Under the pieces are notes generated by a model. That model did no database searches and was not told the origin of the DNA. It worked only from the letters and a program-made list of their open reading frames with translations. Below are positions 1,339 to 60,002 of a stretch of 64,000 nt of DNA, piece after piece; the first letter of the stretch is position 1, and each line of letters starts with the position of its first letter. Source of the stretch: Gemmatimonadales bacterium (GTDB lineage Bacteria; Gemmatimonadota; Gemmatimonadetes; Gemmatimonadales; GWC2-71-9); assembly GCA_035488835.1 (NCBI GenBank), contig DATHKX010000057.1, positions 21,149-85,148 on the forward strand. The letters are read 5' to 3'. The position numbers and the translations under genes were made by a program.

Positions 1339-1429
1339 CGGAGGGGGGGGGATTCGAACCCCCGATAGGGGTATTAGCCCCTATAACGGTTTAGCAAACC
1401 GCCGCCTTCAGCCACTCGGCCACCCCTCC
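1339..1429 (-). tRNA. tRNA-Ser (anticodon GCU), class II with a long variable arm
   Basis: Reverse complement reads GGAGGGG-TG-GCCGAGTGGCTGAAGGC-G-GCGGT-TTGCTAA-ACCGT-(variable arm GGGGCTAATACCCC)-GGGGG-TTCGAAT-CCCCC-CCCCTCC-G. The 7-bp acceptor pairs. The loop TTGCTAA gives anticodon GCT. No CCA is encoded. Confidence 0.9.
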
Positions 1430-3937: not shown

Positions 3938-4645
3938 ATGACCCTCGGTGTTCTGTCAACGATCCCCAACGTCAACCGCTCCATCGTTCGCTGCACCCGC
4001 TGTCCGCGGTTGCGGGCCTATTGCCGCCGTGTAGCCCGGGACAAGAAGCGTGAATTTCGCGACTGGGAGTACTGGGGGAAGCCGGTTCCGGGCTTGGGCG
4101 ATCCGGATGCGCGGTTGCTCGTCGTCGGGCTCGCCCCCGCGGCGCACGGCGCCAACCGCACCGGGCGCATGTTCACGGGAGACTCGAGCGGCAGCTGGTT
4201 GTACGAGGCGCTCTATCGGCACGGGTTCGCGAGCCAGCCGCAATCGCTGTCCCGCGATGACGGCCTGACGCTCAACGACTGCTACATCTCCGCGGCGGCG
4301 CGGTGCGCGCCGCCCGGCAACAAGCCCAGCCGTGTCGAGCTCGACCGTTGCCGGCCGTATCTCGCAGCCGAGCTGCGATTGCTCCGGCGGGTGCGGGTGG
4401 TGGTAACGCTGGGACGGATCGCGCACGAGAGCTGGCTCAAGGCAGCGGGGTGGTGGGAGCGGCTCCCACCGCGCGCGCGGCCTCCGTTCGCTCACGGCGC
4501 GGAGACGATGCTGCCCGACGGCGCCGTGGTCATCGCGTCGTATCACCCGAGCCGCCAGAACACCAACACGGGCAAGCTGACCCCGACGATGTGGAACGCG
4601 GTGTTTCGGACAGCGCGGGCGCTGCTCGGGCAACCGACTCTTTAG
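3938..4645 (+). CDS. Uracil-DNA glycosylase superfamily protein (family 4/5, UdgB-like)
   Basis: CTRCPRL Fe-S Cys cluster region, the GLAPAAHGANRTGRMFTGDSSG motif, and a C-terminal YHPSRQN motif. Confidence 0.85.
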   Translation: MTLGVLSTIPNVNRSIVRCTRCPRLRAYCRRVARDKKREFRDWEYWGKPVPGLGDPDARLLVVGLAPAAHGANRTGRMFTGDSSGSWLYEALYRHGFASQPQSLSRDDGLTLNDCYISAAARCAPPGNKPSRVELDRCRPYLAAELRLLRRVRVVVTLGRIAHESWLKAAGWWERLPPRARPPFAHGAETMLPDGAVVIASYHPSRQNTNTGKLTPTMWNAVFRTARALLGQPTL

Positions 4646-4773
4646 GCTACCCGGACCCAAGTGGGCGGCGAACTGGCGATACGTCAGCGAGATACGCTCC
4701 CAGGGGCTGAGCAACCTGCAGGAGGATCGCGAGCCGTTCCGCTATCGGCCCTACCTTGGCTCCTTTTACGGCC

Positions 4774-4802
4774 TTGACAGTTCTTAAATCGTCTCTATTT
4801 TA
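4774..4802 (+). promoter_or_regulatory. Candidate sigma70-type promoter for the 4.9-12 kb operon
   Basis: TTGACA at 4774-4779, then a 16-17 nt spacer, then TATTTT/ATTTTA at 4796-4802. It sits in an AT-rich patch about 100 nt upstream of the GTG start at 4909. Confidence 0.35.
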
Positions 4803-4908
4803 GTGACGTTATGCGTCCCTAAAACACCGTGCGGTGGGACGCAACCAGGCCAGAAAAAGTGCGGGGTATGACCGTCGCCGTCAAGACGCCCGACTCCATG
4901 AATAGACC

Positions 4909-5457
4909 GTGAGATCCCTCCGACCGGTGGGAGTCGGGCTGGTGGTCGGCGCGATCGCGTTCGCGTGCGATCGCTCGCCCACCGCCGTGCCGATCCCAAC
5001 CCCGCTGGCGGCTCGGTCCCAACCCGGGCCAAGCAAGAAGTCCGGTCTGATCCCGTGTGCCCAATCCTATGACTCCGTAACCAAGCTCATCGGCCGACAG
5101 GGAGGGGCATTCCCCGTAGGCCCCCATTACGTGTTCGTCGATTCGCTGGCGTTGCGCGACACAGTGAGGATCACCATCGTGGCGCCAGCGGGCGCCGTGA
5201 GGTGGGTTCGGTTCCGGCCCGACGGCCTCGTCTTCCAGACGACCGTGGACGGTTGGTCCGCACTGCTCTACACGAATTACAAGGACTGCGGGGTGCCGAC
5301 GAGTGACACGCTCCGGATCGCTCAGGTCAGCGACTCGCTGCGCGTCCTCGGGTACCTGCAGACCTTCGTCAAATCCAAGAAGAACCCCTGGAGTCAAGGG
5401 ACACAATTCGTCGTCGGGCTGTTGCCGCATTTCTCGAACTACGCGGTCGCCTGGTAG
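4909..5457 (+). CDS. Lipoprotein with ZU5-like core and C-terminal HFSNYAVAW motif (paralog 1)
   Basis: Signal/lipobox ...LVVGAIAFAC. Core reads GGAFPVGPHYVFVDSLAL...VRFRPDGLVFQ. It ends ...LLPHFSNYAVAW. Confidence 0.7.
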   Translation: MRSLRPVGVGLVVGAIAFACDRSPTAVPIPTPLAARSQPGPSKKSGLIPCAQSYDSVTKLIGRQGGAFPVGPHYVFVDSLALRDTVRITIVAPAGAVRWVRFRPDGLVFQTTVDGWSALLYTNYKDCGVPTSDTLRIAQVSDSLRVLGYLQTFVKSKKNPWSQGTQFVVGLLPHFSNYAVAW

Positions 5458-5465
5458 GACTCACA

Positions 5466-6164
5466 ATGGCCTCGGAGAATCGTATGTCCCTTCGCCGTTC
5501 ACTGATCCCGCTGGCGCTCGCGCTGTTGGCCACCCGATGCGCCGACGGACCGCATCCCACGGCGGTGCAGCAGCCGACCGCCCCAGCGCCGCACTTCCTG
5601 CGGTGGGCCGGGGGCGCCGCGCCGCAGTTCACCTCGATCGGCGCGCTGTCGGGCGGGGTCGGTGATCGCGCTCGCCTCGCCGCTCCCGCGGGTGGGGTCA
5701 GTCTCGATCGGTATACGGCGTCGTTCTGGGCGGTCCGCGGCGAGCCGCGGTCTCTGCAGATCAACTACCTGAGCTCCACCGGGGACACCAGCTCGCCGTT
5801 CTTGCGGCTCACCACCACTGATCCGGCATATGTACCTGGGGTCGGCGACCTCGCGCCCGGCGACTCTGTGCTGATCACGGTGACGATCGACCCAGAGAAC
5901 ATCAAAGTGTCGCTCGAGCCGACAGGATTGCTGTTCGGCGAGCCCGGCCAGCTGGAGATCTCCTATGGCGGCGCCGATGGCGACCTGAACGGCGACGGTG
6001 TGCTGGACGACGCCGACTCCTACATCGAAGGCCGGCTGCTGGGGCTGTGGTATCGCGAGGGCACTGAGGGTGCGTGGGAGAGAATCCCTGCAGTGCAATT
6101 GCTCTCGGACAAGTCGTTCACCAGTGCGTTGCCCCACTTCTGCGAGTACGCGGTTTCCTGGTAG
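5466..6164 (+). CDS. Lipoprotein with C-terminal HFCEYAVSW motif (paralog 2; alternative start 5484)
   Basis: Signal MSLRRSLIPLALALLATRC. Contains a Ca-binding-like DGDLNGDGVLDDAD stretch. It ends ...ALPHFCEYAVSW. Only 8 nt separate it from paralog 1. Confidence 0.7.
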   Translation: MASENRMSLRRSLIPLALALLATRCADGPHPTAVQQPTAPAPHFLRWAGGAAPQFTSIGALSGGVGDRARLAAPAGGVSLDRYTASFWAVRGEPRSLQINYLSSTGDTSSPFLRLTTTDPAYVPGVGDLAPGDSVLITVTIDPENIKVSLEPTGLLFGEPGQLEISYGGADGDLNGDGVLDDADSYIEGRLLGLWYREGTEGAWERIPAVQLLSDKSFTSALPHFCEYAVSW

Positions 6165-6183
6165 TCGGCGGGGGACAAGCAGC

Positions 6184-8274
6184 ATGCACGCGTCGTCAAT
6201 CGTAATCGACAAGGCCCGGCAGCTCGCCGCCGCCGGACACCACGCCGAGGTCGTCGAGTACCTCGGCGGGCGACCGGGAAGTGAGCTGGCGGATTCGCCG
6301 AGCCTCGCGCTGCTGTACGGCACCGCGTACGCGCGGCTCGGGCGCCACGATGAGGGACAGCGGTGGCTCGACCTGGCGCTCGACCAGGCGCGCAAGCTTG
6401 ACGAGCAGACGGTCGAGCGTCACGCCCTCAATGCGCGGGGCGCCATCGCCCTGGTGAGCGGGCGGATCGACGAGGCAGCGGAGTACTTCACGCAGGCCCT
6501 CATGGCCGCCAGCCGTGACGGCGATCCTGCCACGACGGCCCGTTCCTCCAACAATCTCGGGATCATCAGCAACCTGCGGGGACGGCACGCGGAGGCGATC
6601 GGGTCCTGGGAGATCGCGGCTGCCGCCTTCGACCGCGCTGGTTTGCGCCAGGGCGTCGCCGAGTGCTACCACAACTTGGCGATCGCGTATCGGCAGCAGG
6701 GCGCGCTCGACCGCGCGCTGGCCACGGCCGACCGGGCCGTCGCCGAAGCCGAAGCGGCTGGAGATCGCACGCTCCTGGCGATGGCGCTCCGGGGGCACGC
6801 GGAGATCCGCTTGGTCCGCGGCGAGCCGGAGCTGGCGCGGGGTGAGCTGGACCGCGTTGGGGAGATCCGCCGCGGGCTGCGCGATACGGTCGGAGAGGCC
6901 GAGGACCTGCGGGTCGCGGCGTCGCTGTTGGTGGCCGAGGGCCAGCCGGCGGCCGCGGAGCGAGCCCTGCGCGAGGTGATCGCGCGGGCCGAGCCGCACG
7001 GGCGGCCGCAGCTTTTGGCGCAGGCGACCCGGGACTTGAGCGGGGTCCTGCGCCGCACCGGGCGGGACACCGAAGCCCATGCGGTGGCGCGCACGGCGCG
7101 GGCCATGTTCGCGCGCCTCGGCGCCGAGGGCGAAATCCGCGATCTGGCCGGTCAGGGCTGGGATGAGGCTTTCGCGGCCGAGCTGCGCGGGTCGCTGGCG
7201 CCGCTCCATGCGGCGCAGGAGTTGGCCGATGCCGGGCGCTATGCCGAGCTACTCAGCTACCTGAGTAAGCGCTCGCCGGACGAGCTCGAGCAGTCCCCCA
7301 TGCTGACCCTACTGTGTGGCCTCGCACACAGTCGACTGGGCCGGCTGGACCTGGGCCAGCAGTGGGCCATGGTCGCGCAGTTGCGGGCGCGCATGCTGGG
7401 GGATCGGAAGCTGGAAGCGCGGGCGCTCAACGTCTCCGGCGCCATCGCGCTGGAGCGGGGCGGCATCAGCGAGGCTACCTACTTCTTCACGCGGGCGCAG
7501 GAAAAGGCGATGCAGGATCATGACATGGCCGGCGTGGGCCGATGCGCCAACAACCTCGGCATCATCGCCAACATGCAGGGGGACTACACCCGGGCCGTCG
7601 GAGCGTACACCCGCGCGATCGCCGCGTACCAGAAGGCCCACCACGACCGCGGCATCATCGAGTCGCAGCACAACCTCGGGATCACGTACCGCGAGCAGGG
7701 GCAGCTGGACCGCGCGATGCGGGCCGCCGACGCGGCGCTGGGGAAGGCCGAGCGGCTGGGCGACCGGACGCTCGAGGCTCAGGCGCTCGCGGGACGGGCT
7801 GAGATCCGGGTCATTCGGGGTGAGCCCGAGCTCGCGATCCGCGACGCGGAGCGGGCGCTGGCGGTGCACCGCGAGCTGAAGGACGCTGTCCTCGAGACCG
7901 AGGACCTGCGAATCCTCGCCGTGGCGCTAGGCACCGCGGGGAAGACGCGAGAGGCCGAGGACATGCTCCGCGGGGTGATCGCCCGCGCGACGGCGCAGGA
8001 GCGGCCCCTGCTCGTCGCCGGTGCCCAGCGCGATCTCGCCCACCTGCTGGCGCTCCTGGGAGACGTCGCTGCGGCGAAACCGATGGCGCAGACGGCCCGT
8101 GCCACGTTCGACCGGCTGGGGGCGAAGGTGGAAATCCAGAAGCTGGACGTGTTGCTGGCGATCCCGGACCTCCTGGTTGCAAAGCAGGAGAGCGAACGCA
8201 TGACGGGATCGCATGCAGGACTGCGTGATGACGTACAACGAGGACGTTCGGGCGACCGTGCCCCACAGGAGTAA
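6184..8274 (+). CDS. Tandem-duplicated TPR-repeat protein (two homologous modules of about 340 aa)
   Basis: Two colinear modules share NNLGIISNLRG/NNLGIIANMQG, CYHNLAIAYRQQGALDRAL/SQHNLGITYREQGQLDRAM and RGEPELA in both. The second module starts near nt 7200. Confidence 0.8.
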   Translation: MHASSIVIDKARQLAAAGHHAEVVEYLGGRPGSELADSPSLALLYGTAYARLGRHDEGQRWLDLALDQARKLDEQTVERHALNARGAIALVSGRIDEAAEYFTQALMAASRDGDPATTARSSNNLGIISNLRGRHAEAIGSWEIAAAAFDRAGLRQGVAECYHNLAIAYRQQGALDRALATADRAVAEAEAAGDRTLLAMALRGHAEIRLVRGEPELARGELDRVGEIRRGLRDTVGEAEDLRVAASLLVAEGQPAAAERALREVIARAEPHGRPQLLAQATRDLSGVLRRTGRDTEAHAVARTARAMFARLGAEGEIRDLAGQGWDEAFAAELRGSLAPLHAAQELADAGRYAELLSYLSKRSPDELEQSPMLTLLCGLAHSRLGRLDLGQQWAMVAQLRARMLGDRKLEARALNVSGAIALERGGISEATYFFTRAQEKAMQDHDMAGVGRCANNLGIIANMQGDYTRAVGAYTRAIAAYQKAHHDRGIIESQHNLGITYREQGQLDRAMRAADAALGKAERLGDRTLEAQALAGRAEIRVIRGEPELAIRDAERALAVHRELKDAVLETEDLRILAVALGTAGKTREAEDMLRGVIARATAQERPLLVAGAQRDLAHLLALLGDVAAAKPMAQTARATFDRLGAKVEIQKLDVLLAIPDLLVAKQESERMTGSHAGLRDDVQRGRSGDRAPQE

Positions 8275-8282
8275 GAGAAGCC

Positions 8283-8819
8283 ATGAAGAAAGGTGAGATC
8301 ATGAAGGCCCTTCGTTTGCTGGTGGTCGCGCTGATCGTGGGCGGGTGCAGCGACCGCGCCCTCATCAGCGCTCCAAACGCGGCTCCGCAGGCCCCTGAGG
8401 CGTCGCTCATCGGAGACCTGCTCGGGGCCACGGGGCTCCTGCAATGCTCCAGCCTCTCGTACGCGTCGGCGACCCAGACGATCGGGTCTGGGGGCGGCAC
8501 GATTCGCGTCGGTCCGCACACCCTGACGGTCCCCGCCGGGGCGCTGCTCTCCCCGGTGGTGATCACGGGTGCGCTGGTGACGGGCCGCGGCGTCAACGCC
8601 GTCCGGTTCCAGCCGGAAGGGCTGAGGTTCCAACGGTCGGCGTATCTCACGATGAGCTACGCGAACTGCAACCTGCTCGGCCGGTTGCTGCCGAAGCGGA
8701 TCGCGTACGTCGGCGACGCGCTCAACATCCTTTCGTACCTCCTGTCGATCGACAACGTGCTCGGTACGAAGGTCACCGGGCGGATCGATCACTTCTCCAA
8801 CTACGCGGTCGCCTGGTGA
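8283..8819 (+). CDS. Lipoprotein with ZU5-like core and C-terminal HFSNYAVAW motif (paralog 3; alternative start 8301)
   Basis: Signal MKALRLLVVALIVGGC. Core reads IGSGGGTIRVGPHTLTVPAGALLSPVVITG...VRFQPEGLRFQRSAYLTMSY. It ends ...RIDHFSNYAVAW. Confidence 0.72.
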   Translation: MKKGEIMKALRLLVVALIVGGCSDRALISAPNAAPQAPEASLIGDLLGATGLLQCSSLSYASATQTIGSGGGTIRVGPHTLTVPAGALLSPVVITGALVTGRGVNAVRFQPEGLRFQRSAYLTMSYANCNLLGRLLPKRIAYVGDALNILSYLLSIDNVLGTKVTGRIDHFSNYAVAW

Positions 8820-10429
8820 CCGCGGCGGACCTGCTCCACGAAGGTCGCGCCCGAGAGCGGGCGGCTCGGATTCCCGAGGCGATCGCGTCGTACGAGGCGG
8901 CGATCGCCGCGGCGGAGCCCGCGGGAGAGGATGCGGCGTTGGCCGAGGCGCTGCGGCGCCTCGCCATCGTGCGCCACCGCCGGGGCGACTCCGCCGACGC
9001 GCGGGGGCTGTGCCGCCGCAGCCACGCGGTGGCGCTCCAGGCCGGTAACACCGTGCTCGCGGGCGAAGCGCTCAACACGCTCGGCGGGATCGACCTGGAG
9101 ACGGACGCCGTCGCCGATGCCCGCGAGAATTTCCTCCGCGCCCTGGAGCTGGGTGGGCAGAGTCGCGAGCTGCGCGCACGGGTGGAGCAGAACCTCGGCA
9201 TCCTCGCGAACATCCAAGGCGACTTCGACGAAGCGGTGGCGCGCTACGGGCGGTCCCTCGAGGCGTATCGCGCGTCCAACGACGAGCATGGCTGCGCGAT
9301 CGCCTATCACAACCTCGGCATGGCGAGCGCGGACCTGCAGCAATTCGACGAAGCGGAGCGCTACTTCCTGCAGAGCTACGAGATCGCCGAGCGCGCGGGC
9401 GACGTGCACCTCCAGGGCCTGTGCCTGGTCAACCACGCCGACGTGCATCTCGTGCGGGGGCGCTATGAGGACGCGCGGCGCAACGCGGAGGCCGCGCTCG
9501 TCACGTTCGATCGGCTCGACGCGCTCAGCGACAAGGCCAACGCGTATCGCGTTCTCGGCATGGTGTTCCGCGAGACCGGCCGGCCCGTGCTCGCCGAGGC
9601 GCGGCTGCGGTCAGCGATCGAGCTGGCGGTGAGTGCGGGCGCGGCATTGAACGAGGCGGAGGCCTCGCGCGAGCTGGCCCTGCTCCACCAGGCGATGGGG
9701 CGCAACCAGGAGGCGCTGAGCCTGCTCAACGCCGCGCATCGCCTGTTCGGGCGGCTCGACGCGCGTCGCGAGCTGGTCCATGTCGATGGCAAGATGGCCG
9801 AGCTCGAGGCCACCTACCTCGCGGTGGTGCGCGAGTGGGGCCAGTCCATCGAGTCCGCCGACCCCTACACCTTCGGCCACTGCGAGCGCGTGGCGCGGCA
9901 TGGCGTGGCCGTGGCCCGGGCGCTCGGGATGGACGAGCACGCCCAGACGACGCTCCGGCTCGGCGCCTACCTCCACGACCTGGGAAAAGTGCGCGTGCCG
10001 CACGAGATCCTGAGCAAGCCCGGCCCGCTGACACGCGACGAGCTCGAGGTGGTGCAGATGCATCCGATCTGGGGGATCGAGCTCCTCGCGAGCGTCGAGT
10101 TCCCCTGGGACTTGAAGCCCATCATCCGCTGGCACCACGAGCGCTATGATGGCACGGGATACCCGGATCGCCTGCGGGGAGACGAGATCCCACTTTCCGC
10201 GCAAGTCGTGGGGATCGCGGACGTCTACGACGCGCTCACCACCGCGCGTCCCTACCGGCCGGCCTTCTCCCGTGGGGCGGCGCTCAAGCAGATCGAGAGC
10301 TGCCGTGGGTTTTGGTCGAAGGCCGTGTATGGCGCCTTCGTCGCTTCGCTGGGCCAACCAGAAGCGCCGATGCGGGCGCACCCGCTACACGGCATAGTTG
10401 CGTCTCCGCCACACGCGGCCCGTCGCTAA
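8816..10429 (+). CDS. TPR module fused to an HD-GYP domain (cyclic-dinucleotide phosphodiesterase family)
   Basis: An in-frame GTG start overlaps the upstream stop (GTGA). The N-terminal TPR module is colinear with the 6184-8274 modules (QNLGILANIQGD, AYHNLGMASADL). The C-terminus has HDLGK...HHERYDGTGYP, the HD-GYP signature. Confidence 0.85.
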   Translation: MTAADLLHEGRARERAARIPEAIASYEAAIAAAEPAGEDAALAEALRRLAIVRHRRGDSADARGLCRRSHAVALQAGNTVLAGEALNTLGGIDLETDAVADARENFLRALELGGQSRELRARVEQNLGILANIQGDFDEAVARYGRSLEAYRASNDEHGCAIAYHNLGMASADLQQFDEAERYFLQSYEIAERAGDVHLQGLCLVNHADVHLVRGRYEDARRNAEAALVTFDRLDALSDKANAYRVLGMVFRETGRPVLAEARLRSAIELAVSAGAALNEAEASRELALLHQAMGRNQEALSLLNAAHRLFGRLDARRELVHVDGKMAELEATYLAVVREWGQSIESADPYTFGHCERVARHGVAVARALGMDEHAQTTLRLGAYLHDLGKVRVPHEILSKPGPLTRDELEVVQMHPIWGIELLASVEFPWDLKPIIRWHHERYDGTGYPDRLRGDEIPLSAQVVGIADVYDALTTARPYRPAFSRGAALKQIESCRGFWSKAVYGAFVASLGQPEAPMRAHPLHGIVASPPHAARR

Positions 10430-10518
10430 AGCATAGCAGCGCGCGGCACCTCTCTTGCGGCCCCGCCACAACCGGCTGCAGCACTTTCCGGTGGGGGTCC
10501 ATCACAGAGGGGGATTCC

Positions 10519-11952
10519 ATGAAACGTTGGCTACTTGCCGCCGCGCTGCTCGCCGGCGCGGCGTGCGACTCGCAGCGCGAACCCGCGGCACCGAGCCGCA
10601 CCGTCGATCCCGCGCTCACGGCGGCGCTCGCGACCGTCACGCCGAGCGACAGGCTGGTGGTGATCGTCAACTACGACGAAACGGCGACCACGTCGGATGC
10701 GATGAGCGCGGCCATCATGAACGTCGGCTCCGGCGTGATCCAGTTCAACAACCTGGACCTCGTGGCCGCCTTCGCCACGCCGGCCGAGATCACGGCGATC
10801 AGCGCGCTGCCGGGCGTGCAGGGCGTGTACGCGAACAAGCAGCTCAGGTACTCGATGCTGCACGAGAGCGTCCCGACCATCCGAGCCGATGCGGTCCACG
10901 CATCGGGCATCACCGGAAAAGGCGTCGGGATCGCCATCCTCGACTCGGGGATCGACGGGTTGTACAACCCCGACCTGCACTATCCCGACAAGACGGTCCA
11001 GAACATCAAGGTGATCGCGAACCTCACCGATCTGTTCACGTTCAAGGGCTCGATCAACAAGACCGCGAAGGCAGCGAACCTGTTCGTCGAGAATCTGCCC
11101 AACAGCGAGACTTCGGTCGGCCACGGCACCCACGTCGCCGGCATCGCGGCGGGCCTGGGCACGGCGTCCGGGGGCTATTACACGGGGGTCGCGCCGGGGG
11201 CGAAGCTCATCGGCATCGGGACGGGCGACATCCTGTTCATCTTCTGGGCCCTGGCGGGCTTCGACTACATCCTCGATCACCAGCAGGCCTACAACATCAA
11301 GGTTGTGAACAACTCCTGGGGAACGAGCGGTCCGTTCGATCCGAAGGATCCGATCAACAAGGCGACGAAGAAAGTGGCCAGCAAGGGCATCACGGTCGTG
11401 TTCGCCGCGGGGAACGACGGCCCCGATCAGAACACGCTCAATCCGTACAGCGTGGCGCCCTGGGTGATCGGCGTGGCGGCGGGCTGCAAGAATCTGCCCG
11501 ATCCGACCAACTCCGCAATCCACTGCGCCGATCAGACGGGACAGAATCGGGCCGCGGTGCTGGCCGACTTCTCGTCGCGGGGCATCCCCGGTGATCCGAT
11601 GTACCATCCCGACGTCACCGCGCCGGGCGTGCACATCGTGTCCACCCGCGCCTCGACCGGCACGGTGCTCAACGCCAGCGACGCGAACCACGACTTCGAT
11701 CTGACGAGCAGCTGCGCCATCAGCTTGGCGAACGAGCAGTATTACACCTGCGCGTCCGGCACCTCGATGGCGACCCCCCACGTCGTCGGCGTGGTGGCGC
11801 TGATGCAGGAAGCGGCAGGGGGGCGCCTGACGCCCAATCAGATCGCGTCGGTCCTGACGCAGACGGCGCGCCCGCTCCCGGGGTTTGCTCTATGGGAAGT
11901 GGGAGCGGGGTACGTGGACGCGCTGGCCGCGGTGAACGCGGTACGGCGGTAG
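10519..11952 (+). CDS. Exported subtilisin-like serine protease (peptidase S8)
   Basis: RBS agagggggA upstream. Signal/lipobox MKRWLLAAALLAGAAC. Catalytic triad contexts AILDSGID, HGTHVAGIAAG and SGTSMATPHVVG are all present. Confidence 0.9.
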   Translation: MKRWLLAAALLAGAACDSQREPAAPSRTVDPALTAALATVTPSDRLVVIVNYDETATTSDAMSAAIMNVGSGVIQFNNLDLVAAFATPAEITAISALPGVQGVYANKQLRYSMLHESVPTIRADAVHASGITGKGVGIAILDSGIDGLYNPDLHYPDKTVQNIKVIANLTDLFTFKGSINKTAKAANLFVENLPNSETSVGHGTHVAGIAAGLGTASGGYYTGVAPGAKLIGIGTGDILFIFWALAGFDYILDHQQAYNIKVVNNSWGTSGPFDPKDPINKATKKVASKGITVVFAAGNDGPDQNTLNPYSVAPWVIGVAAGCKNLPDPTNSAIHCADQTGQNRAAVLADFSSRGIPGDPMYHPDVTAPGVHIVSTRASTGTVLNASDANHDFDLTSSCAISLANEQYYTCASGTSMATPHVVGVVALMQEAAGGRLTPNQIASVLTQTARPLPGFALWEVGAGYVDALAAVNAVRR

Positions 11953-12611: not shown

Positions 12612-13141
12612 CAGACCATCCGGAGCGAGGGGATCATCAAGAGCGCGAACAGGGCGACCATGATCCACACCGGGACTTGCACGGCGGCACCGAGCCATGC
12701 GAGCAGGGCATAGCGCGGTAGGCAGCGCGCCGCCACGGCGGCGGTGTATTTGCCGGCCGGGCAACCGGTCGCGAACGCCAGGGCTTTGAAGGGGAAGAAC
12801 GGCAGCGGTGTCAGACCCGACAGCGCGATCGTTACAAAGGGGAAGCGACGGAACAACCGCTCGGGCCACGTCCTCACCCCCTGGCCCCCTCTCCACTGAT
12901 CGCGCGCCATCCGCGCGATCAGGGGTACGAACATTCGGTGGTCCGCGACGGCGGCGAGCATCGTGCCCGCCGTCGCGACGAGGGTCGTGGTCCAGACGCC
13001 GAGCCGCGGCCCATACCAGATGATGGCGGGCTCGTGCGGCACAAAGGCGAGGGCGATGTTGGACAGGAACGCGTACGCGAAGAGCAGCGCGGCGGAGGTC
13101 GCGGGGGGATGCATGACCCGATATTCGCGCGCCGCTTTCAA
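12590..13141 (-). CDS. DedA/VTT-domain-like membrane protein
   Basis: 183-aa polytopic ORF. The pattern FVPHEPAIIWYG...LSGLTPLPFFPFKALAFATG resembles SNARE-associated/DedA family proteins. The assignment is tentative. Confidence 0.55.
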   Translation of the reverse strand: MKAAREYRVMHPPATSAALLFAYAFLSNIALAFVPHEPAIIWYGPRLGVWTTTLVATAGTMLAAVADHRMFVPLIARMARDQWRGGQGVRTWPERLFRRFPFVTIALSGLTPLPFFPFKALAFATGCPAGKYTAAVAARCLPRYALLAWLGAAVQVPVWIMVALFALLMIPSLRMVWWRRAAS

Positions 13142-13156
13142 GCAGACGTCAAGACG

Positions 13157-13894
13157 CTACCGCACGTCGAACTCCGCCGTGATGTCGTAGTCGTCCACGT
13201 CGCAGATCCCCACGTGCGCGTAATAGTGTCCCGGCCGGGCCGCGGCTTCCTCGGGGAAGTGGATGGCGTCCCGGAACCGCCCGCCGCGCTGCATGGTGAA
13301 GCGTCGGGCGTCCGGGCTCGGCACGATCGTCGTGGTGTCCCACACCGTGACCCCTTCGTGCGACTTAACGGCGATGCACAGGAATCGGTTGTTCTGGAGG
13401 ATGAAGAAGATCGGCGCGGCGCGCCGGTTGAGGATGGTGTACACGAGCATCGGATTCACGCCCGTCGGGCTGCCGGCGTCGTCCTTCCAGCTGAAGCGAT
13501 TGGGGATCACGGAGAGCGTAACGTCGGCGTGGAGGGTCACGCCCCTGTCCACGGTCCCCCGGGCCGTTCCCGGTGGGTCGAGCTCCTTGGCGTTTTCCAC
13601 CTCCATGCCGATGCTGGGATCGCCGCGTTCCGGGAGACGCGTGACCCGCCCACTGGCCTCGATGTACCGATTGAGGTAGCGACCCCAGCGCTCCGGTTTA
13701 CCGACCACCGGCACCACGTACGTCCGCGTACCGAGCACACGGAGCGGCAGCGGGACCACGATCGTCCACACGCCGAACTCGTTGTCCCGCTGGAGGAACC
13801 CTTGGATGGTCAGCGCGGTGTCGACCGACTCCTGCGTGGCCGCGGGTGCGGCGGTGCAGACGAGGAGAGCGAGTACGAGGGCGCGTTCGCGCAT
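13157..13894 (-). CDS. Secreted hypothetical protein
   Basis: Signal peptide MRERALVLALLVCTAAPAATQ. 245-aa ORF with host-like codon bias. No family recognised. Confidence 0.55.
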   Translation of the reverse strand: MRERALVLALLVCTAAPAATQESVDTALTIQGFLQRDNEFGVWTIVVPLPLRVLGTRTYVVPVVGKPERWGRYLNRYIEASGRVTRLPERGDPSIGMEVENAKELDPPGTARGTVDRGVTLHADVTLSVIPNRFSWKDDAGSPTGVNPMLVYTILNRRAAPIFFILQNNRFLCIAVKSHEGVTVWDTTTIVPSPDARRFTMQRGGRFRDAIHFPEEAAARPGHYYAHVGICDVDDYDITAEFDVR

Positions 13895-17800: not shown

Positions 17801-18159
17801 GGATCATCGGCGGCATTGCTCGTCGCTGACCCTTTCCATCCACTCGACATTTTTGCCGTAGTGACTGCGTCGGCCGGATCGGCTTGCGGCACACGCTCGG
17901 CAGTACAAACCCAGCGCCTCACGAGACACCGAAGCCCGTCACGTAACTCTAGCCCCGCACACAGCGCCGGAATAGCAACGCGCGCGCGTGCGGAATCATG
18001 AGCGCGCGGCTCGTCCGGTCGCGGCGGGCGCACATGATGCTTGTCCACCATGCCGGAAGGGTGATCGCACGGGCTTTGACGCGATCCTCGGCTCGACGGC
18101 GGCGAGTGGAGGCGCCTGACCCCAATGGCCGCGACGCGGCAAGTTGTTGCGGTAGAAAG

Positions 18160-18243
18160 CGGAGGGCACAGGACTCGAACCTGTACGGGCTTGCGCCCAG
18201 CGGTTTTCAAGACCGCCGCCTTACCAGTTAGGTCTAGCCCTCC
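18160..18243 (-). tRNA. tRNA-Ser (anticodon UGA)
   Basis: Reverse complement reads GGAGGGC-TA-GACCTAACTGGTAAGGC-G-GCGGT-CTTGAAA-ACCGC-(variable arm GGGCGCAAGCCC)-ACAGG-TTCGAGT-CCTGT-GCCCTCC-G. The acceptor, anticodon and T stems pair. The D-stem has one A/G mismatch. Confidence 0.85.
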
Positions 18244-18245
18244 CG
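18205..18245. repeat. 41-bp direct repeat, copy A (tRNA-Ser 5' end through anticodon loop, plus 2 nt)
   Basis: tttcaagaccgccgccttaccagttaggtctagccctcccg is identical base for base to 19283-19323. The flanking bases differ on both sides. Confidence 0.95.
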
Positions 18246-18262
18246 TGTTACTGCGCTTGAAC

Positions 18263-18667
18263 TTAGCGGCTCAGTGGTACCGTCAGAAGGCCCGATTTTG
18301 TCGCTCCTTTGCCGTTCGGCGCGGCAAAGCGCCGACCGACGGCGGCCGCAAGGTCCGCTTCATCAATCACGTTGTACCTGTCAAACATCGCGTGCGTGCG
18401 CCAGCCGCACAGTCGCATAATCTCACCCTCCGATACGCGGCGCCCGACACCGCCGCGCTGGCCGGGTTCAAAATTCACGGCCAACAACACGGCATCCCCG
18501 GCGTAGAGGGCGCACGTCAGCACCAAGTCCCGGCTCGTCGCGGTTGCGCAAACGCAGGTCGGCCCGCGCTGTGTCACGGCTTCGCCTTCTCTTGCTGTCG
18601 GAGCCATTCGCGCAACTGGCCCAACGGTCGCTCCAAGGACGGCGCGTCCTTCATCGCACTGATCCAC
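18263..18667 (-). pseudogene. Tyrosine recombinase (integrase) remnant
   Basis: RRVSEGEIMRLCGWRTHAMFDRYNVIDEADLAAAV matches the integrase C-terminal Tyr box. The expected HxLRR box is degraded to FEPGQRGG. The N-terminal two thirds are absent, and the upstream part overlaps another small ORF. Confidence 0.7.
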
Positions 18668-18816
18668 CGCTGCGTGAGCGGAGCGTCGCCGTGTCCCGTG
18701 GGCAGCCAGCCGTTGCGGTAGTGCTCGGTCAGGGCCAGCTCGCCAATGCCCACGAGCCGGAACAGTTGGTGCGCCTGCGCGGCGGTGAGCACGAGGCTAA
18801 AGGTTGGCTCGGTCAT
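18574..18816 (-). CDS. Small hypothetical protein (80 aa) of the relic element
   Basis: An internal ATG is preceded by GGAGA at appropriate spacing. The product begins MTEPTFSLVLTAAQAHQLFRLVG. No family recognised. Confidence 0.45.
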   Translation of the reverse strand: MTEPTFSLVLTAAQAHQLFRLVGIGELALTEHYRNGWLPTGHGDAPLTQRWISAMKDAPSLERPLGQLREWLRQQEKAKP

Positions 18817-41032: not shown

Positions 41033-41486
41033 CGGCGCGTCCTCGGGCCGGCCCGGCCGCGGCTCGGGCTCCTTCACGGTGCATCCCGCCGAAGAGCTCG
41101 AGGTCTACTTCAACGAAGTCGCCCACGGCCGCCCGGTGGGCTTCGTCGCCTCGTCCAAGTGGAAGCCGCCGACGGACATCTACGAGACCGACGACGCGCT
41201 GGTGGTCTACATGGACATTTCCGGGATGCGCTCGGAAGACTTCACGGTCGAGTACGTGGACGGCGTCCTGACCATCGCCGGCGAGCGCACCGCCCGGCGC
41301 CACGAAGGCAAGCCGCACTATCACGCGATGGAGGTGCAGGTCGGTCCCTTCGAGCGCCGCTTCCGCCTCCCCGTGCCGGTCGACCCCGGGAGCATTCGGG
41401 CGAACTACGAGCAGGGCTTCCTCGAGGTCCGGCTGACGAAGCTCCCGGCCCGTCTCTCGGGCCCACAGTCGGTGCGGGTGCAGTAG
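41022..41486 (+). CDS. Hsp20/alpha-crystallin family small heat-shock protein
   Basis: ACD pattern [22 protein letters not shown]...[12 protein letters not shown]...GFLEVRL. Confidence 0.85.
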
Positions 41487-43871
41487 GTGGATCGCCTCCC
41501 CGTCCTGCCGCTCGGCCGGATCGTCGTCTACCCGCACGTCGTGCTGCCCATGGCGCTGACCGATCCGCACGCCGTGCAGCTGATCGACGAGGTGGTGCAG
41601 GGCAACAAGCGCCTGCTGCTGGGCGTGGTGCGGCCGCTGGGCGGCACCGAGCCGCCCGAGGGCGCCGTGATGCAGGCCCGCGCCGACGAGCTGTACGAGG
41701 TCGGCACGCTCGGCACCGTGGTGCGCATGCTCAAACTGGGCGACGGGTCGGTGCGCGTCATGGTGCAGGGGCTCGAGCGGGCGCGGCTCGTCGAGGTCGC
41801 GCCGATGGAGCACTGGCTGGTCGCGGGCTACGAGACACTCCCCAACACCGTGCCCGAGGACGCGCGCACCGAAGCCTTGAAGCGCACCGTGCACGCCCAG
41901 TTCTCCCGGGTGATCGACATCGCGCCCTACCTGGGCGAGGAGCTGCACGAGGTCCTGGTCGGCATCACCGAGGGCGGCAAACTGGCCGACTTCGTGGCCG
42001 CGAACCTGGACCTGGCCCTCCCGGCCAAGGCCGAGCTGCTGGCGCTCGACGACGTGAACCGCCGCCTGGAACGGCTCGCCGAGCTGCTGGGCCAGGAGCT
42101 GCAGGTGCTCGAAGTCGGCAGTCAGATCCAGGAGAAGGTGCGTACCCGCCTCGATCAGAATCAGCGGGAGTACGTGCTGCGCGAGCAGATGCGGGTGATC
42201 CGCCAGGAGCTGGGGGAAGAGGAGGGAGAAGACGAGCTGACCGAGCTGGCCGGCCGGCTCGAGGCCGCCGGGCTCCACGACGAGGCCAAGAAGGTCGTCG
42301 ACCGGGAGCTCAAGCGGTTACGCCAGATGTCGCCGCAGTCGGCCGAGTACCATGTGGCCCGCACTTACCTCGAGGTCATCGCGACGCTGCCCTGGGGCCG
42401 CACGTCGGAGGACCGGCTCGATCTGAAGGCGGCGCGCGACATCCTCGACCGCGACCACTACGACCTGAAGACCGTCAAGGAGCGGATCCTCGAGTACCTC
42501 GCGGTCCGCACCCTCAACCCCGCGGCGCGCGGCGGCATCCTGTGCTTCGTGGGCCCGCCGGGCGTCGGCAAGACCTCGCTCGGCCAGAGTATCGCCGAAG
42601 CGCTGGGGCGCCGCTTCACCCGCGTCTCGCTCGGAGGCGTGCGCGACGAGGCCGAGGTCCGCGGCCACCGGCGCACCTACGTCGGCGCGCTCCCGGGACG
42701 CATCATCCACGCGCTGCAGCGCTGCGAGACGCGCAACCCCCTGCTGATGCTCGACGAAGTGGACAAGATGGGAGCCGACGTGCGCGGCGATCCGACGGCC
42801 GCCCTGCTCGAGGTGCTCGACCCCGCGCAGAACGGCACCTTCGTGGACCACTACCTCGAGGTACCGTTCGACCTGTCGGGCGTCATGTTCATCGCCACGG
42901 CCAACAGCCTGGCACCGATCCCCGACCCGCTGCTCGACCGGATGGAAGTGATCACCTTGCCGGGGTACACGCCCGGCGAGAAGCTCGCGATCGCCAAGCG
43001 CTTCCTCCTGCCGCGCCAGCTGAAGGAGACGGGGCTCCAGACGGAGCGGGCGAGCATCGCCGACGGGGCGCTCGAGCGGCTGATCGGCGAATACACGCGG
43101 GAAGCCGGCGTGCGCCAGCTCGAGCGCGAGATTCAGGGCGTGCTCCGCAAGGTGGCGCTCGAAGTGGTCGAGGGACGGGCGGCGACCATCAAGGTCACCG
43201 CGAAGAACCTCGAGAAGTTCGCCGGCCAGCCGAAGGTCCAGAGCGAGGTGGCGGGACGCAGTCCGGAGGTGGGGGTGGCCACCGGGCTCGCATGGACGCC
43301 CGTGGGCGGCGACATCATGTTCATCGAAGCGATTCAGATGCCGGGGAAGGGGCAGATCACCCTCACCGGGCAGCTGGGGGACGTAATGAAGGAGTCCGCC
43401 CAGGCGGCGTGGAGTCTGCTGCGGGCGCGGGCGGGGCCGCTCGGGATTCCGCTCGACGCGTTCACGCAGACCGACGTGCACCTGCACCTGCCGGCTGGGG
43501 CGGTGCCGAAGGACGGTCCGTCGGCCGGGATCGCGATCGCGACCGCGCTGGCGTCGCTGTTGTGCCGCCGTCCGTCGCGCCACGATGTCGCGATGACGGG
43601 CGAGCTCACGCTGCGCGGGCGCATCCTCCCGATCGGCGGGCTCAAGGAGAAGCTGACGGCGGCGGCGCGCGCCGGCGTCAAGACCGTGCTGGTGCCGGCG
43701 CGCAACCAGAACGACATCGTGGATGTCCCCGACGAGGTGAAACAGCTGCTCGAGATCAAGCCGGTGGAGACGATCGACGAGGTGCTCGAGCTGGCGCTGC
43801 TCGAGCCGCACCCGTTGCGGCCCGTTGCGGTACGGGCTCGCCCGTCGGGACAAACGGAGGCGCGGCCGTGA
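41487..43871 (+). CDS. lon: ATP-dependent Lon protease
   Basis: LON N-domain, Walker A GPPGVGKTS and the catalytic Ser context PKDGPSAGIA. 794 aa with a GTG start. Confidence 0.95.
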   Translation: MDRLPVLPLGRIVVYPHVVLPMALTDPHAVQLIDEVVQGNKRLLLGVVRPLGGTEPPEGAVMQARADELYEVGTLGTVVRMLKLGDGSVRVMVQGLERARLVEVAPMEHWLVAGYETLPNTVPEDARTEALKRTVHAQFSRVIDIAPYLGEELHEVLVGITEGGKLADFVAANLDLALPAKAELLALDDVNRRLERLAELLGQELQVLEVGSQIQEKVRTRLDQNQREYVLREQMRVIRQELGEEEGEDELTELAGRLEAAGLHDEAKKVVDRELKRLRQMSPQSAEYHVARTYLEVIATLPWGRTSEDRLDLKAARDILDRDHYDLKTVKERILEYLAVRTLNPAARGGILCFVGPPGVGKTSLGQSIAEALGRRFTRVSLGGVRDEAEVRGHRRTYVGALPGRIIHALQRCETRNPLLMLDEVDKMGADVRGDPTAALLEVLDPAQNGTFVDHYLEVPFDLSGVMFIATANSLAPIPDPLLDRMEVITLPGYTPGEKLAIAKRFLLPRQLKETGLQTERASIADGALERLIGEYTREAGVRQLEREIQGVLRKVALEVVEGRAATIKVTAKNLEKFAGQPKVQSEVAGRSPEVGVATGLAWTPVGGDIMFIEAIQMPGKGQITLTGQLGDVMKESAQAAWSLLRARAGPLGIPLDAFTQTDVHLHLPAGAVPKDGPSAGIAIATALASLLCRRPSRHDVAMTGELTLRGRILPIGGLKEKLTAAARAGVKTVLVPARNQNDIVDVPDEVKQLLEIKPVETIDEVLELALLEPHPLRPVAVRARPSGQTEARP

Positions 43872-58017: not shown

Positions 58018-60002
<1,985 letters not shown>

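Follow-up and report, generated by a model that had tools for sequence, protein, structure and literature searches.

Three open reading frames on the + strand of a 64-kb window (the whole stretch of DNA analyzed) share the C-terminal ending HF[S/C]xYAV[A/S]W. Why should three separate proteins finish on nearly the same residues? The proteins, here called P1, P2, and P3, end in PHFSNYAVAW, PHFCEYAVSW, and DHFSNYAVAW, just as a preliminary description of this DNA had claimed. A six-frame regular-expression scan of the 64 kb found three instances of the motif and no more, each immediately 5' of a stop codon. The three genes lie among the following features:

4774-4801, + strand: candidate promoter of sigma-70 type (TTGACA-16-TATTTT) ahead of the five genes, a consensus match only
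4909-5457, + strand: P1, predicted ZU5-fold lipoprotein of 182 aa with a signal and lipobox AFA-C20
5428-5436, + strand: P1 site H174-F175-S176, with the tail SNYAVAW at 5434-5454
5466-6164, + strand: P2, divergent predicted ZU5-fold exported protein of 232 aa with a predicted Cys nucleophile and a Tat-like RR signal
6135-6143, + strand: P2 site H224-F225-C226, with the tail CEYAVSW at 6141-6161
6184-8274, + strand: TPR1, cytoplasmic, 696 aa, two tandem TPR modules of ~330 aa and no output domain (Pfam TPR_12, E=1.2e-38)
8283-8819, + strand: P3, predicted ZU5-fold lipoprotein of 178 aa with lipobox VGG-C22
8790-8798, + strand: P3 site H170-F171-S172, with the tail SNYAVAW at 8796-8816
8816-10429, + strand: TPR-HD-GYP, cytoplasmic, 537 aa, a single TPR module joined to an HD-GYP domain of the c-di-GMP phosphodiesterase type (Pfam TPR_12, 2.1e-37; HD_5, 3.7e-33)

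The promoter candidate has 10/12 matches and is the sole + strand promoter-like site in 4500-10700; the same scan found no + strand terminator-like site inside the five genes. The GTG start of TPR-HD-GYP overlaps the P3 stop codon by 4 nt (TGGTGA). A single operon is the best explanation for the five genes at 4909-10429. Its surroundings are a housekeeping neighborhood, with no PADLOC defense match, and peptide importer genes were found neither in the operon nor in the rest of the window.

The three homolog searches returned 811, 857, and 356 sequences; hence, these are real genes rather than chance open reading frames. All three had been described as paralogs. P1 and P3 clearly are (37% identity, E=4e-24). 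P2 is related more distantly (E about 1e-4), and its predicted model shows the same fold. The core first noticed in the window, GG-x-[FI]-x-VGPH ... SY, is real and reaches the entire family, where it reads IGxxGGxIxVGPHxLxIPxGAL ... VxFxPxGLxF ... SY. This family comprises 2,186 clusters at 50% identity, carries no annotation, and occurs in Gemmatimonadota. Three lipoprotein signals had also been proposed, and all three proteins do begin with a hydrophobic signal followed by a Cys. The P2 lipobox (A-T-R-C) is atypical, however, with Arg at -1. Since a twin-arginine motif, SVRRSLIP, is also conserved in the P2 ortholog group (111/120), P2 may, judging by its sequence, be exported by Tat instead of as a classical lipoprotein. 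A lipobox with a hydrophobic region occurs in 103/128 members and exactly two mature Cys residues in 105/128. The Cys pair is absent from P2; in P3, a disulfide C55-C129/130 is probable.

What fold do these proteins adopt? The AF2 model of P3 reached a pLDDT of >90 over residues 50-178, and its top 23 Foldseek matches in the PDB were all ZU5 (ankyrin, ZO-1, UNC5b) or GAIN (BAI3, CD97) domains, with a probability of 1.00 and a best E value of 1.2e-5; below these, the matches fell off abruptly into noise. Nup98 structures were absent from the top 50 matches of P3. The P2 model (pLDDT 74) gave the same leading matches as P3, headed by ankyrin ZU5 (probability 1.0). Pfam ZU5 was matched by 51/118 diverse family members, collinear with the model, every match scoring below the gathering score; no other Pfam family was matched by more than 2 of the 118. 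The models thus show a minimal ZU5 fold for the P1-P3 family, in agreement with the beta-sandwich that had been suspected. The contrary outcome raised at that time was an unrelated fold, such as a small outer membrane beta-barrel in which YAVAW is a BAM beta-signal. Outer membrane protein beta-signals consist of alternating hydrophobic residues and a terminal aromatic, which the tail resembles. Yet the confident models, those of P3 and P2, show beta-sandwiches whose matches are confined to ZU5 and GAIN domains; Foldseek returned no barrel. We therefore give the barrel virtually no credence.

The HF[S/C/T] triplet is located in the modeled turn preceding the last strand, where autoproteolytic ZU5 domains and Nup98 also carry theirs. 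Across 118 diverse family members, no columns other than H and F are invariant, and only S, C, or T follows them, a restriction expected of a nucleophile. P1 orthologs carry HFS in 117/120 cases and HFT in 1, and P2 orthologs divide into 75 with Ser (HFS) and 45 with Cys (HFC). Rare family members have RFS or SFS in place of HFS. The conservation of H-F-[S/C/T] on which the preliminary description had staked its proposal therefore extends across the 118 members, and the Ser-to-Cys swap that it had read as the mark of a nucleophile recurs within a single ortholog group. By analogy with the known domains, we infer self-cleavage at HF|[S/C/T]. Invariance of the His is not in itself proof of catalysis, since the -2 His of Nup98 is only marginally needed for cleavage (PMC3210808).

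Perhaps HF[S/C/T] is instead a structural turn with a buried Phe, in a ZU5 domain that does not cleave and whose tail is simply the domain end? The best structural matches (ankyrin, UNC5b, ZO-1) are indeed ZU5 domains without self-cleavage, and the subthreshold Pfam scores and the RFS and SFS members point the same way. However, the motif is missing from noncleaving ZU5 domains (in UNC5b, for instance, a Leu takes the place of the Phe), and CARD8 and NLRP1 are themselves cleaved at SFS (PMC3210808). Two invariant columns followed by one of three possible nucleophiles, together with frequent Ser/Cys exchange inside one ortholog group, also argue for catalysis. We consider a noncatalytic turn quite unlikely.

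Cleavage at this site would liberate very little. The tail is exactly 7 residues past the predicted scissile bond in 127/131 diverse representatives carrying the site, and the protein end is strictly W/Y/F. No other 9-residue window of the domain has an entropy as low as HFS plus the tail: 0.71 bits, versus a domain mean of 1.95 and 1.46 to 2.49 for the other strands. SNYAVAW is identical in P1 and P3, and the heptapeptide is highly conserved phylum-wide, with only position 2 free to vary. Within the tail, synonymous codons and stop codons are free to change; selection therefore targets the peptide rather than the DNA or a ribosome-binding site.

The strongest evidence for a releasable peptide comes from two observations missed by the preliminary description: the near-obligatory TPR neighbors and a set of mini lipoproteins. 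In 69/89 cases, the gene after a P3-type gene encodes TPR-HD-GYP, down to 44% identity; 7 contig ends and 7 tandem copies make up most of the exceptions. P1/P2-type genes are followed by a TPR1-type gene in other genomes too. Operon linkage of ZU5-like genes with TPR genes is thus near-obligatory. The two halves of TPR1 are 48% identical (E=8.5e-76), and each is 31 to 33% identical to the TPR module of TPR-HD-GYP. Because TPR1 is a duplicated module, three ZU5 genes stand beside three TPR modules. No signal or transmembrane segment was found in the TPR1 and TPR-HD-GYP proteins, and TPR1 has no hydrophobic segment at all. The TPR proteins retain a conserved Asn ladder and intact HD-GYP motifs: in 70 TPR-HD-GYP orthologs, YLHDxGK, HHExxDGxGYP, and five groove Asn residues are at least 95% conserved.

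The mini lipoproteins (81 to 100 aa) have no ZU5 body and no His-Phe, yet they end in SNYAVAW. We found them at 26 metagenome and 3 genome loci, in at least 4 body types that are 32 to 65% identical, always between TPR1 and TPR-HD-GYP. In loci L084, L094, and L107-109, a mini is the sole occupant of the P3 slot. All minis end in [R/H]-SNYAVAW and retain only the signal and the tail; among the metagenome minis, this invariance is partly by construction, because the scan pattern required [RH]SNYAVAW. Presumably, the mini takes over the role of P3 in some genomes, where an external protease would be needed.

What might the tail do? RRNPP pro-peptides usually carry the mature peptide as their last 4 to 10 C-terminal residues, which are read by an adjacent cytoplasmic TPR receptor (PMC10075063). 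Tentatively, and with a little less than even confidence, we propose that P1-P3 are pro-peptides made for export, and that the adjacent TPR sensors, which would control c-di-GMP hydrolysis, recognize their C-terminal heptapeptide as ligand. P1 and P3 would be exported as Sec lipoproteins and P2 possibly via Tat, each folding into a minimal ZU5 beta-sandwich with a strained His-Phe-(Ser/Cys/Thr) turn before the last strand. There, the chain would be cut by an N-to-O (or N-to-S) acyl shift followed by hydrolysis, the chemistry of PIDD, UNC5CL, and Nup98. The last strand, a heptapeptide ([S/C]-x-Y-A-V-[A/S]-W) whose C terminus is free, would then be held only noncovalently. Freed spontaneously or on unfolding or degradation of the body, the heptapeptide would reach the cytoplasm and dock in the concave groove of each adjacent TPR module (TPR1 has two, TPR-HD-GYP one), altering c-di-GMP hydrolysis. 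The mini pro-peptides, with SNYAVAW after a basic residue, would substitute for P3 in some genomes. Peptide release, import, TPR binding, and the phosphodiesterase effect are all predicted steps.

Several observations count against a ligand. Quorum-sensing peptides typically diversify into pherotypes, whereas the tail is conserved, as a purely structural last strand would also be. The window holds no importer. Mutual information between tail and partner is no higher in the TPR module than in HD-GYP (position 2, 0.179 versus 0.179), so there is no specific signal of tail-TPR coevolution, and at two loci a duplicated TPR-HD-GYP gene has no partner of its own.

Could cleavage occur and the tail stay bound? 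The proteins would then be envelope binding or adaptor modules, linked to TPR/HD-GYP by coregulation in a c-di-GMP-controlled envelope program. Most ZU5 domains are binding or adaptor modules. The fragments of PIDD, NLRP1/CARD8, and Nup98 remain associated after cleavage, and the strand past the cut is important for fold stability (PMC3210808). The conserved tail has the alternating hydrophobic Y/V/W pattern of a buried strand, and both the lack of tail-TPR covariation and the lack of a nearby importer fit. A bound tail does not account for the minis, which have lost body and HF, kept the export signal and heptapeptide, and replaced P3. Also unexplained would be why ZU5 genes and TPR modules come three to three, and why the linkage, with its start/stop overlap, still holds at identities as low as 44%. 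We regard it as unlikely, though the likeliest of the rival readings.

TPR domains commonly clamp free C-terminal peptides, as in PEX5-PTS1 and Hop-EEVD. In the same way, the TPR modules might bind the free C terminus of the precursor in the cytoplasm before export, acting as a chaperone or as an export-backlog sensor that tunes c-di-GMP. The strict W/Y/F end suits recognition of a carboxylate end, the Tat-like signal of P2-type proteins implies folding, and possibly cleavage, in the cytoplasm, and translational coupling implies cosynthesis. Such a route requires no importer. In this model, however, neither the conserved nucleophile nor autoproteolysis has a role in P1 and P3, whose Sec export precludes earlier folding, and the export and disulfide bonding of the ligand carrier go unexplained. 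It strikes us as improbable.

Finally, the (thio)ester at Phe-Ser/Cys might be resolved by a nucleophile other than water, in Hedgehog-like fashion, ligating Phe to peptidoglycan or lipid with the heptapeptide as leaving group. Ester intermediates of autoprocessing domains are open to a second nucleophile (PMC3210808), and a small conserved leaving group at the extreme C terminus suits the chemistry. However, a leaving group need not be the most conserved segment of a protein, the TPR linkage goes unexplained, and minis without HF and the fold still keep the tail. Ligation is thus very improbable. Returning to the exported pro-peptide, the operon suggests an undescribed peptide-signaling module in a Gram-negative phylum.

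How does such a module compare with known systems? Animal ZU5 domains (PIDD1, UNC5CL, and the ZU5-like FIIND of NLRP1 and CARD8) share the beta-sandwich fold, and the autoproteolytic ones also share an [H/S]-F-S triplet at the turn that leads into the last strand, with a buried Phe, a Ser nucleophile, and a C-terminal piece beginning with the strand that completes the sandwich. They are cytoplasmic and followed by UPA and death-fold domains, whereas the P1-P3 family is exported, often lipidated, has Cys/Thr nucleophile variants, and resembles Pfam ZU5 only below threshold. Because it ends 7 residues past the predicted cut, one beta-strand is the only possible product. The Nup98 site, HF|SKYGL in PDB sequences, is almost identical to HF|SNYAV in P1/P3, and in one isoform self-cleavage at HF|S removes only a short tail (PMC4483485). 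Nup98 is nevertheless eukaryotic and nuclear pore bound, and its tail has no known ligand role. It had been called convergent with ZU5, a view at odds with PMC3482391, which treats Nup98, GPS, and ZU5 as homologous. The GAIN domains of BAI3 and CD97 are significant fold matches in which the cut leaves the last beta-strand embedded noncovalently, later to serve as a ligand, as we propose for P1-P3. GAIN cleaves at H-L|T/S in a much larger domain, and its Stachel is tethered to a 7TM receptor and acts in cis; the P1-P3 strand would be untethered, with a separate cytoplasmic TPR protein as candidate receptor.

The preliminary description knew of no bacterial system with a lipoprotein that stops exactly six residues after an HFS site. 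Only the minimal architecture is undescribed, since Zhang et al. 2012 (PMC3482391) had predicted ZU5 autopeptidases in bacterial RHS toxins and in large surface proteins. Those domains are likewise secreted and predicted to self-process, but they lie at the N terminus of very large RHS, SpvB, and adhesin proteins and release a large remainder. The P1-P3 proteins stand alone, with ~130 mature residues and just 7 downstream, in a signaling operon rather than a toxin/immunity locus. The RRNPP(A) systems of Firmicutes (Rap-Phr, NprR-NprX, PlcR-PapR, PrgX, Rgg-SHP) share a gene for an exported pro-peptide adjoining that of a cytoplasmic TPR receptor, a conserved or active peptide in the last 4 to 10 residues (7 here), and the possibility of several modules per genome. 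Among natural PDB entries, RapF ranks with the nearest relatives of the TPR module, although the likeness to RRNPP receptors is generic TPR similarity only. The P1-P3 system differs in belonging to Gram-negative Gemmatimonadota, in a far less diversified peptide, and in a pro-peptide that is usually a folded, predicted self-cleaving domain of 170 to 230 aa rather than a peptide of 10 to 100 aa. Its TPR is N-terminal with HD-GYP or no output, where RRNPP(A) receptors have HTH or phosphatase outputs.

Three genes of the window encode proteins that end in HF[S/C]xYAV[A/S]W, here called P1, P2 and P3:

4909-5457, + strand: P1, 182 aa, C-terminus PHFSNYAVAW
5466-6164, + strand: P2, 232 aa, C-terminus PHFCEYAVSW
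8283-8819, + strand: P3, 178 aa, C-terminus DHFSNYAVAW

The coordinates and termini given for these ORFs in the preliminary description were borne out by an ORF check and a six-frame scan, in which the terminus occurred three times in the 64-kb window, each time abutting a stop codon. The three had also been called paralogs, which is clear for P1 and P3 (37% identity, E = 4e-24); P2 is only a remoter relative of that pair (E about 1e-4). None of the three matched a Pfam or NCBIfam model at E <= 1. Searches of PDB sequences by phmmer and profile hmmsearch gave no ZU5 chain among the matches; the sole "significant" profile match, the WD40 protein 2ymu, was an artefact of the repeated V-x-F-S-P-D-G motif, and a query with the C-terminal 33 residues gave no relevant match. 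A word-indexed search found 811 homologs of P3, 857 of P2 and 356 of P1, the named ones being "hypothetical protein" entries from Gemmatimonadetes/Gemmatimonadales MAGs. A profile run exhaustively against 1.84 billion cluster representatives placed 2,186 clusters (50% identity) in the family at E <= 1e-3 and 861 at E <= 1e-10; the family is without functional annotation in Pfam, NCBIfam or elsewhere. When 185,579 species-representative genomes were scanned with the tail itself as the pattern, so that relatives with other tails escape, 120 loci were confirmed; all but two of the 80 listed bear a Gemmatimonadota label. Judged by these sequence comparisons, P1, P2 and P3 are real genes in a large family.

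What fold might these proteins adopt? A ZU5-type beta-sandwich had been suggested for them, to be set against an outer membrane (OM) beta-barrel in which the C-terminus is a BAM signal. P3 was modelled with AlphaFold2 from a 48-sequence alignment; the model was all-beta, with pLDDT >90 over residues 50-178. When it was compared with the PDB by Foldseek, the top 23 matches were all to ZU5 (ankyrin-R/B/G, ZO-1 and UNC5b) or GAIN (BAI3 and CD97) chains, with probability 1.00, E values down to 1.2e-5 and a target-normalised TM of about 0.55; thereafter the probability fell below 0.4. The P2 model (pLDDT 74) likewise had an ankyrin ZU5 domain as its first match, at probability 1.0. Both models are two-sheet beta-sandwiches superimposable on solved ZU5 domains, in keeping with the original suggestion. 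No barrel appeared among the structural matches of P3 or P2; the fold contradicts the OM barrel, to which we assign next to no probability.

When the Pfam cutoff was relaxed to E <= 10, 51 of 118 relatives matched ZU5 (best 4.9e-5), and no other family was matched by more than two. These matches scored 17-20 bits, below the 21-bit gathering score of PF00791, and were collinear with profile positions 1-37 and 61-81 of 97. We read such sub-threshold matches as evidence of remote homology, not of Pfam membership. Together with the Foldseek matches, they argue that the P1-P3 family consists of remote ZU5 superfamily members missed by current models. The Nup98 autoproteolytic domain (PF04096) gave no Pfam match, and no Nup98 chain was among the top 50 Foldseek matches. 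The GAIN chains of BAI3 and CD97 were significant fold matches of P3 (ranks 16 and 19-21); the motif here is HF[S/C/T], and neither subdomain A nor a Pfam GPS match is present. The animal ZU5-UPA-death-domain architecture is also absent, the proteins stopping 7 residues past the site.

In the description by D'Osualdo et al., autoproteolytic ZU5 domains carry [H/S]-F-S on the loop that precedes the last strand, their Phe is deeply buried and their Ser is essential, and the non-cleaving UNC5b has Leu in the Phe position (PMC3210808). Using the definition of a ZU5/Nup98-type site drawn from that paper, [H/S]-F-[S/T/C] on the turn directly before the last beta-strand, we located the site in both models. 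H170-F171-S172 of P3 lies between strands 163-170 and 173-177, and HFC 224-226 of P2 lies between strands 217-222 and 227-231. For each protein we examined the triplet in the 120 closest homologs: it was HFS in 120 of 120 for P3, HFS in 117 and HFT in 1 for P1, and HFS in 75 and HFC in 45 for P2. The 148 representatives at 50% identity included 128 with HFS and 3 with HFT, and the chain ended exactly 7 residues past the Phe in 127 of these 131; the 13 representatives without the motif were mostly ORFs broken inside the domain, at a contig end or a frame break.

Across 118 diverse aligned members, H170 and F171 were the only invariant columns. Conservation was at least 90% for S172, Y174, A175, the lipobox Cys, the C55 and C129/130 pair and the GG...G / P-x-G-L-x-F core. 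The entropy minimum over 9-residue windows of the domain fell on HFS plus the tail (0.71 bits; domain mean 1.95, other strands 1.46-2.49), the tail being the C-terminal heptapeptide after the scissile bond, SNYAVAW in P1 and P3 and CEYAVSW in P2. Only position 2 of the tail varied freely. The preliminary description had made its case depend on conservation of H-F-[S/C/T] in homologs, which the alignment upholds. It had also taken the Ser-to-Cys swap as the mark of a nucleophile, and this idea gains from a third residue that is S, C or T only and from the 75:45 split in the P2 group: a position limited to Ser, Cys or Thr, where Ser and Cys often replace each other within a single ortholog group, is, in an alignment, what a nucleophile shows. 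By its sequence features, then, the P1-P3 family resembles the cleaving type of ZU5 domain, and we regard self-cleavage as such as probable. Where paralogous modules share a genome, their tails sometimes differ (SNYAVAW versus SDYVIAW) and are sometimes identical. In one P2-type protein (locus L083, 3731-4633), which ends in ...LLHFCDYEVSFSEYAVSW, the site and tail are tandemly doubled, as HFC plus tail and then SFS plus tail.

The proteins also bear export signals. P1 (...IAFA-C20) and P3 (...LIVGG-C22) have standard lipoprotein signals that fit the lipobox [LVI][ASTVI][GAS]-C. A third such signal had been proposed for P2; its N-terminus (5466-5545) reads ATR-C, with Arg at -1, and does not fit. 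A regular expression alone found a lipobox-like motif and a hydrophobic region in 103 of 128 diverse members, and 105 of the 128 had exactly two Cys in the mature part, a pattern that would fit a disulfide outside the cytoplasm. The Cys pair is missing from the P2 group, in which 111 of 120 orthologs have a twin-arginine-like S-V-R-R-S-L-I-P. P2-type proteins may be exported by Tat already folded, with possible cleavage before export.

Two TPR genes are interleaved with P1, P2 and P3:

6184-8274: TPR1, a TPR-only protein with no output domain; a tandem duplication of a ~330-aa TPR module, with halves 48% identical (E = 8.5e-76)
8816-10429: TPR-HD-GYP, a TPR module with a C-terminal HD-GYP domain of c-di-GMP phosphodiesterase type (Pfam HD_5, 3.7e-33)

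The genes are separated by 8 bp (P1-P2), 19 bp (P2-TPR1) and 8 bp (TPR1-P3), and P3 overlaps TPR-HD-GYP by 4 nt at TGGTGA. A single promoter-like site (4774-4801) lies upstream of the five genes, with no + strand terminator inside them. Compared with the one TPR module of TPR-HD-GYP, the halves of TPR1 show 31-33% identity each. Because TPR1 is a tandem duplication, the operon's three TPR modules (two in TPR1, one in TPR-HD-GYP) match its three ZU5-like genes. TPR1 and TPR-HD-GYP should both be cytoplasmic, since neither shows a signal peptide or any hydrophobic segment. Across 70 orthologs, at least 95% conservation was seen for the HD-GYP motifs YLHDxGK and HHExxDGxGYP and for five Asn residues of the TPR helices. 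Across 83 loci in other genomes, a P3-type gene was followed by a same-strand TPR-HD-GYP gene in 69 of 89 cases; other successors included a TPR gene cut by a contig end (7) and a tandem ZU5-like copy (7). This linkage persists down to 44% identity, and the order elsewhere is P1-type, then P2-type, then TPR-only gene.

Elsewhere in the window the genes are of housekeeping type: aminoacyl-tRNA synthetases, PurH, SelA, TilS and a UDG-family gene. A defence or toxin system was considered and rejected, because the only PADLOC matches were to generic TPR and HD, in a neighbourhood of housekeeping genes. Two long putative ORFs, 41159-44254 (+ strand, 1031 aa) and 57969-60269 (- strand, 766 aa), had no Pfam match at E <= 1e-5. 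Rfam found only tRNAs in the window, at 1339-1429 (-), 18161-18242 (-) and 52770-52843 (+); the second, with a low score of 38 bits, overlaps the beginning of a 198-aa + strand ORF (18125-18721). Directly downstream of the operon, 10519-11952 encodes a subtilase (Peptidase_S8, E = 6.9e-41) that bears a lipoprotein-type signal of its own, MKRWLLAAALLAGAAC. A role as a processing protease is conceivable for this subtilase, whose linkage is not conserved: of the other loci, only the closest (L004) has it. At loci L002 and L003, a gene for a GGDEF diguanylate cyclase (12702-13637), absent from the window, follows TPR-HD-GYP and reinforces the c-di-GMP context. Loci L019 (10323-11894) and L040 (3960-5531) have a second, closely related TPR-HD-GYP gene ~1 kb downstream of the first, the copies being separated by an unannotated minus-strand gene of 377-412 aa. 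We found no hidden, diverged ZU5 partner upstream of these second copies, where the minus-strand gene lies, and no short tail-bearing partner of their own at either locus.

Is the ZU5 domain needed in the P3 slot? Some loci encode "minis," short lipoproteins of 81-100 aa that consist of a signal peptide, a lipobox, a Pro-rich linker, a basic residue and SNYAVAW. Of the ZU5 domain no more than the opening one or two strands remain, and His-Phe is missing, with QR, HH, GR or RR before the Ser. A relaxed pattern found three at genome loci:

L002, 10755-11021: mini
L027, 6662-6964: mini
L035, 3-191: mini

A metagenome scan gave 26 mini loci (L084-L109) with at least 17 distinct sequences and at least four body types, the bodies being 32-65% identical; one of its two patterns demanded [RH]SNYAVAW, so tail invariance in this set is partly built in. 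The window itself has none. At all 26 of these, and at the three genome loci too, the mini lies between the TPR-only and TPR-HD-GYP genes. In three body types (L084; L094; L107-109) it is the sole gene in the slot, and so replaces P3. Codon usage in the tail is unrestricted: for Ser, Ala and Val all four codons turn up, and each of the three stop codons is used. Such free choice of codon and stop places the conservation at the peptide level, and a ribosome-binding site or the start region of the downstream gene is rejected as its cause. Nor is the L002 mini a single recent deletion, given the four or more divergent body types. Judged by these sequences, the ZU5 body and self-cleavage site are dispensable in the P3 slot, while the export signal and C-terminal heptapeptide are not.

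The reading we find best supported is that P1-P3 and the minis are exported pro-peptides whose functional unit would be the C-terminal heptapeptide, with the adjacent cytoplasmic TPR modules as candidate receptors. Cleavage of the ZU5 forms would proceed by an N-to-O or N-to-S acyl shift at HF|[S/C/T], and the peptide so freed would remain in place as the last strand until release; a rival reading, in which the ester mediates ligation, is very improbable. The minis would need an external protease to cut after the basic residue. Once released, the peptide would enter the cytoplasm and bind the TPR groove, and binding to TPR-HD-GYP would alter c-di-GMP hydrolysis; TPR1, having no output domain, might be a sink or a partner. 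That the tail is a TPR ligand we hold to be slightly short of an even prospect. The full route of release and import is tentative and on balance doubtful. The TPR modules might instead recognise the precursor C-terminus before export, which seems to us distinctly unlikely.

Several observations count against the proposed peptide signal. Throughout the phylum the tail varies very little, and one and the same peptide ends both P1 and P3. Such uniformity is unlike pherotype diversification, and a structural strand would look alike. Co-variation of the tail is no stronger with the TPR module than with the HD-GYP domain: mean mutual information was equal for the two parts and dominated by phylogeny. 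Some duplicate TPR-HD-GYP genes are partnerless, and no peptide importer lies within the 64-kb window. Perhaps, then, the ZU5 proteins are cleaved and the tail is never released, the TPR link being co-regulation only? We judge this unlikely. A ZU5 domain that is not catalytic at all we consider quite unlikely. Both alternatives leave the mini forms unexplained.

If cleavage occurs, no natural autoprocessing unit of ZU5/GAIN type smaller than these proteins would be known: they have about 125 residues and only the released strand downstream. Eukaryotic H-F-S chemistry in a bacterial lipoprotein would then make a simple study model. If the peptide-TPR link is true, the module would be a first among cytoplasmic TPR/peptide signalling modules in three respects: its occurrence outside Gram-positive bacteria, its self-processing pheromone precursor and its direct input into c-di-GMP degradation. 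The full pathway, if true, would couple a peptide cue (cell density, or envelope lipoprotein integrity or proteolysis) straight to c-di-GMP turnover. Gemmatimonadota are abundant in soil and poorly studied. Detectors of RRNPP systems, the peptide quorum-sensing systems of Firmicutes with cytoplasmic TPR receptors (Rap-Phr, PlcR-PapR etc.), would miss the family because of their length limits, exclusion of N-terminal TPRs and Gram-positive-only coverage. Since the family is large, unannotated and missed by these detectors, it may constitute a major unrecognised regulatory circuit in this phylum.

The likeness to RRNPP systems is that a secreted pro-peptide gene adjoins a cytoplasmic TPR receptor gene; the differences lie in phylum, precursor size and maturation, domain order and output. 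In RRNPP systems, the active peptide is usually the last 4-10 residues (PMC10075063). Their pro-peptides measure 10-100 aa (PMC10075063), a range that holds the minis (81-100 aa) and not P1, P2 or P3 (182, 232 and 178 aa). The apparent Sec/lipoprotein- or Tat-type N-termini correspond to the "relaxed" level of secretion signal in that paper. RRNPP receptors are TPR proteins of 250-500 aa; TPRs are clear here, and the lengths of 537 and 696 aa are just out of range. Adjacency is as in RRNPP systems, ranging from the 4-nt overlap to the 19-bp gap in the window and seen in 69 (+7) of 89 P3-type cases and all 26 mini loci. The N-terminal TPR module and HD-GYP output found here are features of the clusters that the filters of PMC10075063 discard. 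An independently built, self-maturing, RRNPP-like Gram-negative system, in which the heptapeptide re-enters the cytoplasm and one TPR sensor directly gates an HD-GYP phosphodiesterase, strikes us as a rather doubtful conjecture.

At the cleavage site, the family can be compared with Nup98, where VSHF|SKYGL in PDB sequences is close to HF|SNYAV here, in the local site only. A fission-yeast Nup98 isoform self-cleaves off just a 33-residue tail (PMC4483485). The preliminary description knew of no bacterial system of this kind. A bacterial ZU5 domain is not new in itself, since a 2012 paper had predicted ZU5 autopeptidases in bacteria, N-terminally placed in RHS toxins and also within large surface proteins (PMC3482391). 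The claim stands for the stand-alone form: our searches of the literature on ZU5, on HD-GYP, TPR and peptides, and on Gram-negative TPR peptide receptors found nothing relevant. We found no description of an exported, stand-alone minimal ZU5 domain that ends seven residues past the cut and is near-obligatorily paired with TPR and HD-GYP, nor of the replacement of a ZU5 form by short pro-peptides with the same tail. The proposed module draws on two kinds already known, ZU5 autoprocessing and pro-peptide/TPR-receptor signalling; the full pathway, should it be confirmed, would stand at a much greater distance from described systems.
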